Assembly (NCBI GenBank): GCA_964016885.1
Contig: OZ024746.1
Coordinates: forward strand, 23,126,001 to 23,190,000
Reading direction: 5' to 3'
Source of the DNA: Eledone cirrhosa
Taxonomy: Eukaryota
DNA length: 64,000 nucleotides
The notes under the pieces are model-generated. The model was given only the letters and a program-made list of their open reading frames with translations. It was not told the DNA's origin and made no database searches. Below, piece after piece: positions 40,453 to 40,864 of the stretch. The translations under genes were made by a program, and so were the position numbers. Every line of letters starts with the position of its first letter. Positions within the stretch are counted from its first letter, which is position 1.

Positions 40453-40858
40453 AATTAAGTTAAAGTGTACATCTACATATGTATACGGAAGTATTAGTAT
40501 GCATATAAATACACACATGTATACATATGTACATGTACTGAGTTTTTCACTAGACACTTTATGTGCTTTTACAATTCTCCAGAGAAGCCGGAAGATGGGT
40601 AAATATTGCTGATGAGATGTAATAACATCGAAACTAGTCCAATATTCCTGTCTGGCCCTCTGGAGAATAGAGGAAATGTGTTTCCTTGAAAACTCGTATG
40701 ACTCTAAAACCCGGTCCGTCTGTGTGGTTACATACAGACTAGCTGACACTCACTGTAAAGTGTCTAGTGAAAAACTCAGTACATGTACATATGTATACAT
40801 GTGTGTATTTATATGCATACTAATACTTCCGTATACATATGTAGATGTACACTTTAAC

Positions 40859-40864
<6 letters not shown>
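40453..40864. repeat. 109-bp inverted repeats (40453-40561 / 40756-40864) enclosing a hammerhead
   Basis: The arms read as exact reverse complements. Confidence 0.93.
40602..40646 (+). ncRNA. Intact minimal type-I hammerhead ribozyme
   Basis: aatattg CTGATGA gatgt-aata-acatc GAAA ctagtc caatatt. Stem I is 7 bp, helix II is 5 bp, helix III is the palindrome ACTAGT and the site is GUC. Confidence 0.9.

Follow-up and report, generated by a model that had tools for sequence, protein, structure and literature searches.

We found that the inverted repeat at positions 40453–40864 of a 64,000-nt stretch of Eledone cirrhosa DNA (hereafter designated the window) very probably belongs to a non-LTR retrozyme copy that is truncated at its 5' ends and inverted head to head; this copy lies in a TA microsatellite and was likely inserted in trans by the reverse transcriptase (RT) and GIY-YIG endonuclease of a Penelope-like element (PLE). 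The family concerned is a non-LTR retrozyme, that is, a non-autonomous Penelope-type element of an already known kind, and it behaves like a PLE without being an autonomous one.

Anatomy of the window copy

A preliminary description of this DNA had presented a 412-bp cassette with 109-bp perfect inverted repeats and a long rod-like fold. The exact complementarity of 40453–40561 and 40756–40864 over 109 bp was confirmed, and the rod is indeed predicted for the whole 412-nt stretch (z = -28.5). The repeats, however, are not the termini of the element, nor is the cassette its unit: left of 40453, the element runs on for a further 71–74 bp, up to a TA tract ending at about 40381, so that the insertion extends over approximately 40382–40864 and is bracketed by TA tracts. 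Two pieces of a 469-bp non-coding tandem repeat, each truncated at the 5' end, make up the insertion; they lie in opposite orientations, with their 3' ends pointing outward. Numbered along the repeat unit (U; reference, the natural copy L003:1335–1803), the order is TA tract, minus-strand U1–74 with U361–469, a 2-nt overlap, plus-strand U165–469, and TA tract, with the following features.

40303–40381, no strand: left (TA)n target tract, read from the sequence.
40379–40452, minus: left-arm tail, U1–74, 100% identical to the reference copy and ending at the tail end; the last 3 nt are common to the TA tract.
40453–40561, minus: left-arm body, U361–469, the left half of the 109-bp inverted repeat.
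40560–40561, no strand: point of head-to-head inversion, where U361 meets U165 with 2 nt in common; this junction is found nowhere else in the genome.
40560–40864, plus: right arm, U165–469, 5'-truncated and terminating at the short end.
40575–40667, plus: type I hammerhead with extended stem I, from fold, core pattern, Rfam and alignment.
40609–40615, plus: CUGAUGA core, followed by stem II (40616–40629, 5 bp) and GAAA (40630–40633).
40639, plus: C17, with the predicted cleavage site just 3' of it.
40756–40864, plus: right half of the 109-bp inverted repeat, U361–469.
40865–40894, no strand: right (AT)n target tract and then (GT)n, read from the sequence.

U361–469, the segment common to both arms, constitutes the inverted repeat; whatever stretch the two arms both copy would end up as a perfect inverted repeat, which could be of any length and measures 109 bp in this case. 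The 109-bp arms do not mark the ends of a new element type; inverted insertion into a TA microsatellite produced them on this one occasion as a by-product. The host flanks on the two sides are unlike each other, and the GC content over 40562–40864 is 37%. No ORF encoding RT and GIY-YIG is present in the unit or in the window element, which is thus not an autonomous EN+ PLE. Judging from its sequence, the window copy is probably an inert daughter copy, because it carries a single hammerhead and lacks U75–164, the segment with a conserved octamer and a TATA-like stretch.

Several other features were seen in the window. A second hammerhead-like motif at 4993–5031 (plus strand; fold z = -1.7) belongs to a different repeat family, which terminates at a TA tract near 5080 and has 74% matches in loci L098 and L116. 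On the minus strand, 11233–11357 resembles 5S rRNA (71.2 bits, with small insertions) and is possibly a pseudogene or a SINE head, and 7026–7331 shows decayed similarity to PLE proteins in their C-terminal endonuclease region. A 373-codon frame at 322–1443 (plus strand) with a weak zf-RVT match (E = 9e-4, below the cut-off) is likely a LINE remnant. Identical sequence on opposite strands at 60238 (minus) and 60364 (plus) makes up one more inverted repeat of the head-to-head type, to which a copy near 43497 is related. Rfam microRNA matches in the window scored below the gathering scores and were discarded as microsatellite noise.

The 469-bp repeat family and its hammerhead

The exact hammerhead-core pattern gave 3,271 matches in the genome and the reversed control gave 0. 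A search with a 194-bp core yielded 1,176 candidates, and all 40 that were scored were full-length at 100% identity; with at least 40 identical copies of this core, the recent insertion proposed in the preliminary description is supported. The unit recurs with a tandem period of 469 bp in arms of up to ~7 kb, its longest stop-free frame, read on a doubled unit, is 84 codons, and its subfamilies are ~99%, 95% and 89% identical to the reference unit. A homologous 423-bp family (3,674 candidates) has the same layout and the same pair of end sites. The octamer ATGCAAAT within U75–164 is conserved in that related family, and a promoter role for U75–164 is our guess; newt satellite 2 has an snRNA-type promoter. 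Further retrozyme-like families akin to the unit were seen at L104, L055, L144–L162, L179, L194, L200, L205, L208 and L210, many of them with a ATGCAAAT-type octamer upstream of the hammerhead. Within the long arrays at L131 and L139, variants recur at periods of ~2 and ~6 units, which suggests multimeric templates or later duplication.

The hammerhead of the window copy has the intact type I core that had been claimed for it, with C17 at 40639; cleavage after this position is a prediction from sequence. The extended stem I, also proposed earlier, was borne out by the fold of 40575–40667, which was better than all 200 shuffles (0/200 as good; z = -5.5). The Rfam model Hammerhead_HH9 (RF02275) matched 40591–40661 with 31.8 bits, below its gathering score of 52. 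Among 170 units, 159 keep all 14 core positions, a proportion biased upward by the picking of loci via core matches. In an alignment of 13 sequences from two related families, 96.4% of the cells in the hammerhead helices were paired, and both sides had changed at 7 of the 17 pairs. Three of five covariation measures beat all 500 shuffles, while the observed number of pairs with both-sided change was reached by 53/500 shuffles and the observed number of pair types by 250/500; the covariation stems largely from a single split between the 469-bp and 423-bp families.

Helix III, a mere 2 bp around palindromic ACUAGU, is missing from the minimum-energy fold of monomeric 40575–40667. Weak palindromic helices III of this kind favor cleavage as dimers (PMC4209133), and efficient cutting by the window-family hammerhead is predicted, from this model, only in dimer form. 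The axolotl HHR_Amex1 and amphibian satellite hammerheads (PMC7229834; PMC4209133) likewise have a very weak, palindrome-capped helix III and a predicted need for dimers; this likeness concerns helix III, and the HH9 score of the window copy lies below the gathering score. Of nine dimers of Xenopus retrozymes, only one showed cleavage in vitro (bioRxiv 10.64898/2026.07.22.740005), so that activity of the window-family hammerhead is not to be assumed. Moreover, the 5' ends of arms are not enriched at the cleavage site (2/81 within 8 nt; expected, 2.9). The insertions thus give no footprint of cleavage, and the template would have been read through its hammerheads, as expected for a circle or an uncleaved multimer.

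The family shares with the animal non-LTR retrozymes described in PMC7229834 and bioRxiv 10.64898/2026.07.22.740005 a non-coding tandem unit that is low in GC and contains a single type I hammerhead, a copy number in the thousands, target duplications of >4 bp and co-occurring PLEs. By the definition drawn from these sources, it has an intact core, a 469-bp period, no coding sequence, GC below 50% and a target duplication of >4 bp. The unit length lies just over the range of 150–450 bp given by Cervera and de la Pena 2020 (PMC7229834) and within the 51–972 bp given by Li, Clavereau and Pollet 2026 (bioRxiv 10.64898/2026.07.22.740005). In contrast to the retrozymes as presented there, most insertions of the present family are divergently inverted, have fixed short and tailed ends and lie in TA tracts. 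The term 'inverted' is absent from the main text of PMC7229834, as are 'tail', 'target site' and 'TPRT' from that of bioRxiv 10.64898/2026.07.22.740005. A literature search by title and start of abstract, its coverage stopping short of most subscription journals and of supplements, returned no report of inverted, tailed retrozyme insertions.

Ends, arms and targets across insertions

For a positional sample, the first 100 core-pattern matches on contig C1 were traced to their loci, all of which were used; these were 30 distinct loci with 32 insertions. L119, a duplicate of L118, and L140, the same insertion as L139, were left out of the counts; L118 and L119 have the same insertion structure ~18 kb apart, likely by local duplication. 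Together with 21 distinct loci from the core search (9 overlapping ones of 30 being omitted) and the window, the full set comprised 54 insertions. In the positional sample, 26/32 insertions were inverted, every one of them divergently with 3' ends outward, and 6/32 had a single arm; in the full set, 41 of the 54 were inverted, and every junction was different.

These results bear on the MITE-like element that the preliminary description had offered as one reading, namely, a DNA transposon with 109-bp terminal inverted repeats and a captured ribozyme. The perfect 109-bp arms and the TA at the right end would fit such a transposon. A genome search, however, found an exact match to the window junction once in 3.0 Gb, which refutes it, and with a left arm reaching beyond the repeat, terminal inverted repeats are not at both termini. 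Furthermore, the two arms do not always travel together, as shown by the single-arm copies, which the preliminary description had itself named as grounds for rejecting a TIR element, and arm lengths from 74 to ~7,300 nt with differing junctions leave no uniform size or internal structure. We regard this reading as having practically no chance of being correct.

The outer ends of the retrozyme insertions fall at two fixed sites, U469 (+0–4) or ~U70–74. Among the 30 inverted insertions with both ends resolved (the other 11 of the 41, with an open or atypical end, did not enter this count), 29 had one short end and one ~70-nt tailed end (binomial p = 3e-8 against 0.5). Resolved ends abut a TA-rich flank in 70/80 cases, compared with 4% of window positions, and 1,875 exact tail-end/TA junctions were counted genome-wide. 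The genome-wide end patterns matched 190 (forward) and 353 (reverse) times for the short end and 931 and 944 times for the tail end, two sets that are not comparable, the short-end pattern fitting the youngest subfamily only and its reverse matches being counted multiply. A genome search with the 91-bp tail region gave no match, which is uninformative since such a search passes over frequent words. Where the target is not pure TA, duplications of 8 bp (L113) and 11 bp (L023) were found; in pure TA tracts, that of the window included, a target duplication is unreadable.

The sole exception to the end rule, L020, has tails at both ends and host flanks that are inverted copies of each other. These mirrored flanks, along with the perfect complementarity of the window arms, are what an assembly or read-chimera artefact would produce. 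As an account of the inverted repeats, such an artefact is very improbable: the flanks of the window insertion differ between sides, the end asymmetry is fixed across loci, target duplications are present, and the window copy could not have arisen by simple fold-back.

Within an insertion, the opposite arms diverge at 0.86% of sites, compared with 1.38% between young loci. Own arms were closer to each other than to the median other locus at 16/18 young loci (p = 0.0008; L130 and L137 left out), and the own arm was the nearest or tied in 17/28 cases; later gene conversion could be an alternative source of this similarity. Near-identical arms would also result if the family were a retrozyme whose inversion came about when a single cDNA folded back and primed itself, and not through priming on both target strands; self-priming has been proposed for rotifer PLEs (PMC3846280). 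Some junctions lie in hairpins (L121 and L124; overlaps of 23 and 60 nt), and arm lengths are compatible with fold-back in 20/29 insertions. In the other 9/29, the window copy among them, arm lengths exclude simple fold-back, each arm having sequence that the other cannot supply in register; the same holds by arm content for 4/8 insertions of PLE-A, the autonomous family described below. Fold-back also leaves the two fixed end sites, one per side, unexplained, and we give it only a slim chance. The strict end asymmetry instead suggests coupled priming of both target strands.

Penelope-like elements and the proposed mode of insertion

Several RT-bearing families of this genome are located in TA tracts. 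One of them, designated PLE-A, is an autonomous Penelope-like family with a 3,127-bp period and a ~900-aa frame, present in many copies that are up to 99.9–100% identical (L193–L210, e.g., G000:C2:200825000-200840000; L103 is an older copy with RT and GIY-YIG matches). It uses TA targets, has a 44-nt tail that likely holds the start codon, and carries a minimal hammerhead-like motif ~150 nt ahead of the short end. In a sample of 15 insertions, selected for paired matches or long frames, 12 were inverted, and all 12 had one short and one 44-nt tailed end. Another PLE family (L091, L092, L096, L100 and L104), with a CxxxxCxxC linker and a 3' hammerhead-like motif in which a U3-A8-type core replaces C3-G8, is presumably Neptune.

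EN+ PLEs (PMC8557442, PMC3846280, PMC11167929) resemble the retrozyme family in several respects: their tandems are partial and adjoined by an inverted, 5'-truncated copy, one end often has a tail, TA microsatellites are favored as targets, duplications measure 8–11 bp, and a hammerhead lies upstream of two end sites. Unlike them, the family has no ORF, a canonical rather than minimal hammerhead and no sequence link to a coding PLE that we found, and its tail of ~70 nt is longer than the 30–40 bp of published PLEs and the 44 nt of PLE-A. Non-autonomous Chlamys elements such as MRC1 (PMC8557442) are similarly non-coding dependants of PLEs with multicopy head-to-tail insertions; according to that source, however, Chlamys-type elements generally share 3' sequence with an autonomous family and belong to a clade without canonical hammerheads.

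The pieces might alternatively be truncated pseudo-LTRs (pLTRs) of an autonomous PLE with its ORF at other loci. The succession of hammerhead, short end and tail end is the same in PLE-A and the anole PLE (PMC11167929), Xenopus retrozymes are related to pLTRs (Li et al. 2026, bioRxiv 10.64898/2026.07.22.740005), and only 150 of the 10,595 candidates from our GIY-YIG scan of the genome were scored. The units, however, directly adjoin one another at a 469-bp period without an ORF, and a junction of unit and coding sequence was found in 0/54 insertions and 0/98 PLE loci. The helper search combined the GIY-YIG scan, 20 long-ORF loci, the PLE-A loci and a two-sequence DNA profile over the 98 PLE loci, which are a small part of the PLEs of this genome; none of these loci held an autonomous element sharing sequence with the unit. 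Thus, of the inverted Penelope pseudo-LTR suggested in the preliminary description, the Penelope-type inverted structure stands, whereas the unit is a non-coding tandem repeat and not the pLTR of a coding element found here; a pseudo-LTR origin is improbable.

Apparent pLTR matches at L103, L104, L055 and L179 proved to be separate insertions, as did the nine strongest remaining profile matches between unit and PLE, which are set off by TA tracts. A tblastn comparison of the PLE frames with the unit returned low-complexity matches or a neighboring insertion only.

Insertion of the retrozyme in trans may be envisaged as follows. The template would be a multi-unit or circular U RNA. A PLE protein would nick the TA target on each strand, and from either nick a cDNA would be started at one of the two fixed internal sites, which lie ~70 nt apart. 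Both cDNAs would remain incomplete and would finally be linked head to head through their 5' ends, mostly via microhomology. With the purified anole PLE, a predicted dimer, both strands are cut and then extended from a pair of internal starts that bound the tail, and insertion in vitro is independent of hammerhead cleavage (PMC11167929). How the inverted structures of PLEs form is a named open problem (PMC8557442), and the mobilizing enzyme in the retrozyme papers is a candidate or is argued from phylogeny (PMC7229834; bioRxiv 10.64898/2026.07.22.740005). Tentatively, and with somewhat less than even confidence, we propose that Penelope-type integration is an obligately asymmetric twin priming, with both TA strands nicked by one enzyme complex and one cDNA started at each fixed site of a single RNA, never two at the same one, and that the retrozyme superfamily makes use of it by means of the shape of its RNA and of no sequence in common with its helper.

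The locus itself is ordinary, being one truncated copy among thousands, and the family is of modest value. Collectively, it is a retrozyme with the full Penelope footprint, and the rule of one short and one tailed end is common to it and a recently amplified autonomous family; from this shared rule, the positions at which priming should start in vitro can be predicted exactly. If the proposed asymmetric twin priming is true, the family would be direct genomic evidence that Penelope enzymes integrate animal retrozymes, and it would offer a 469-nt substrate together with a live candidate helper for the test.
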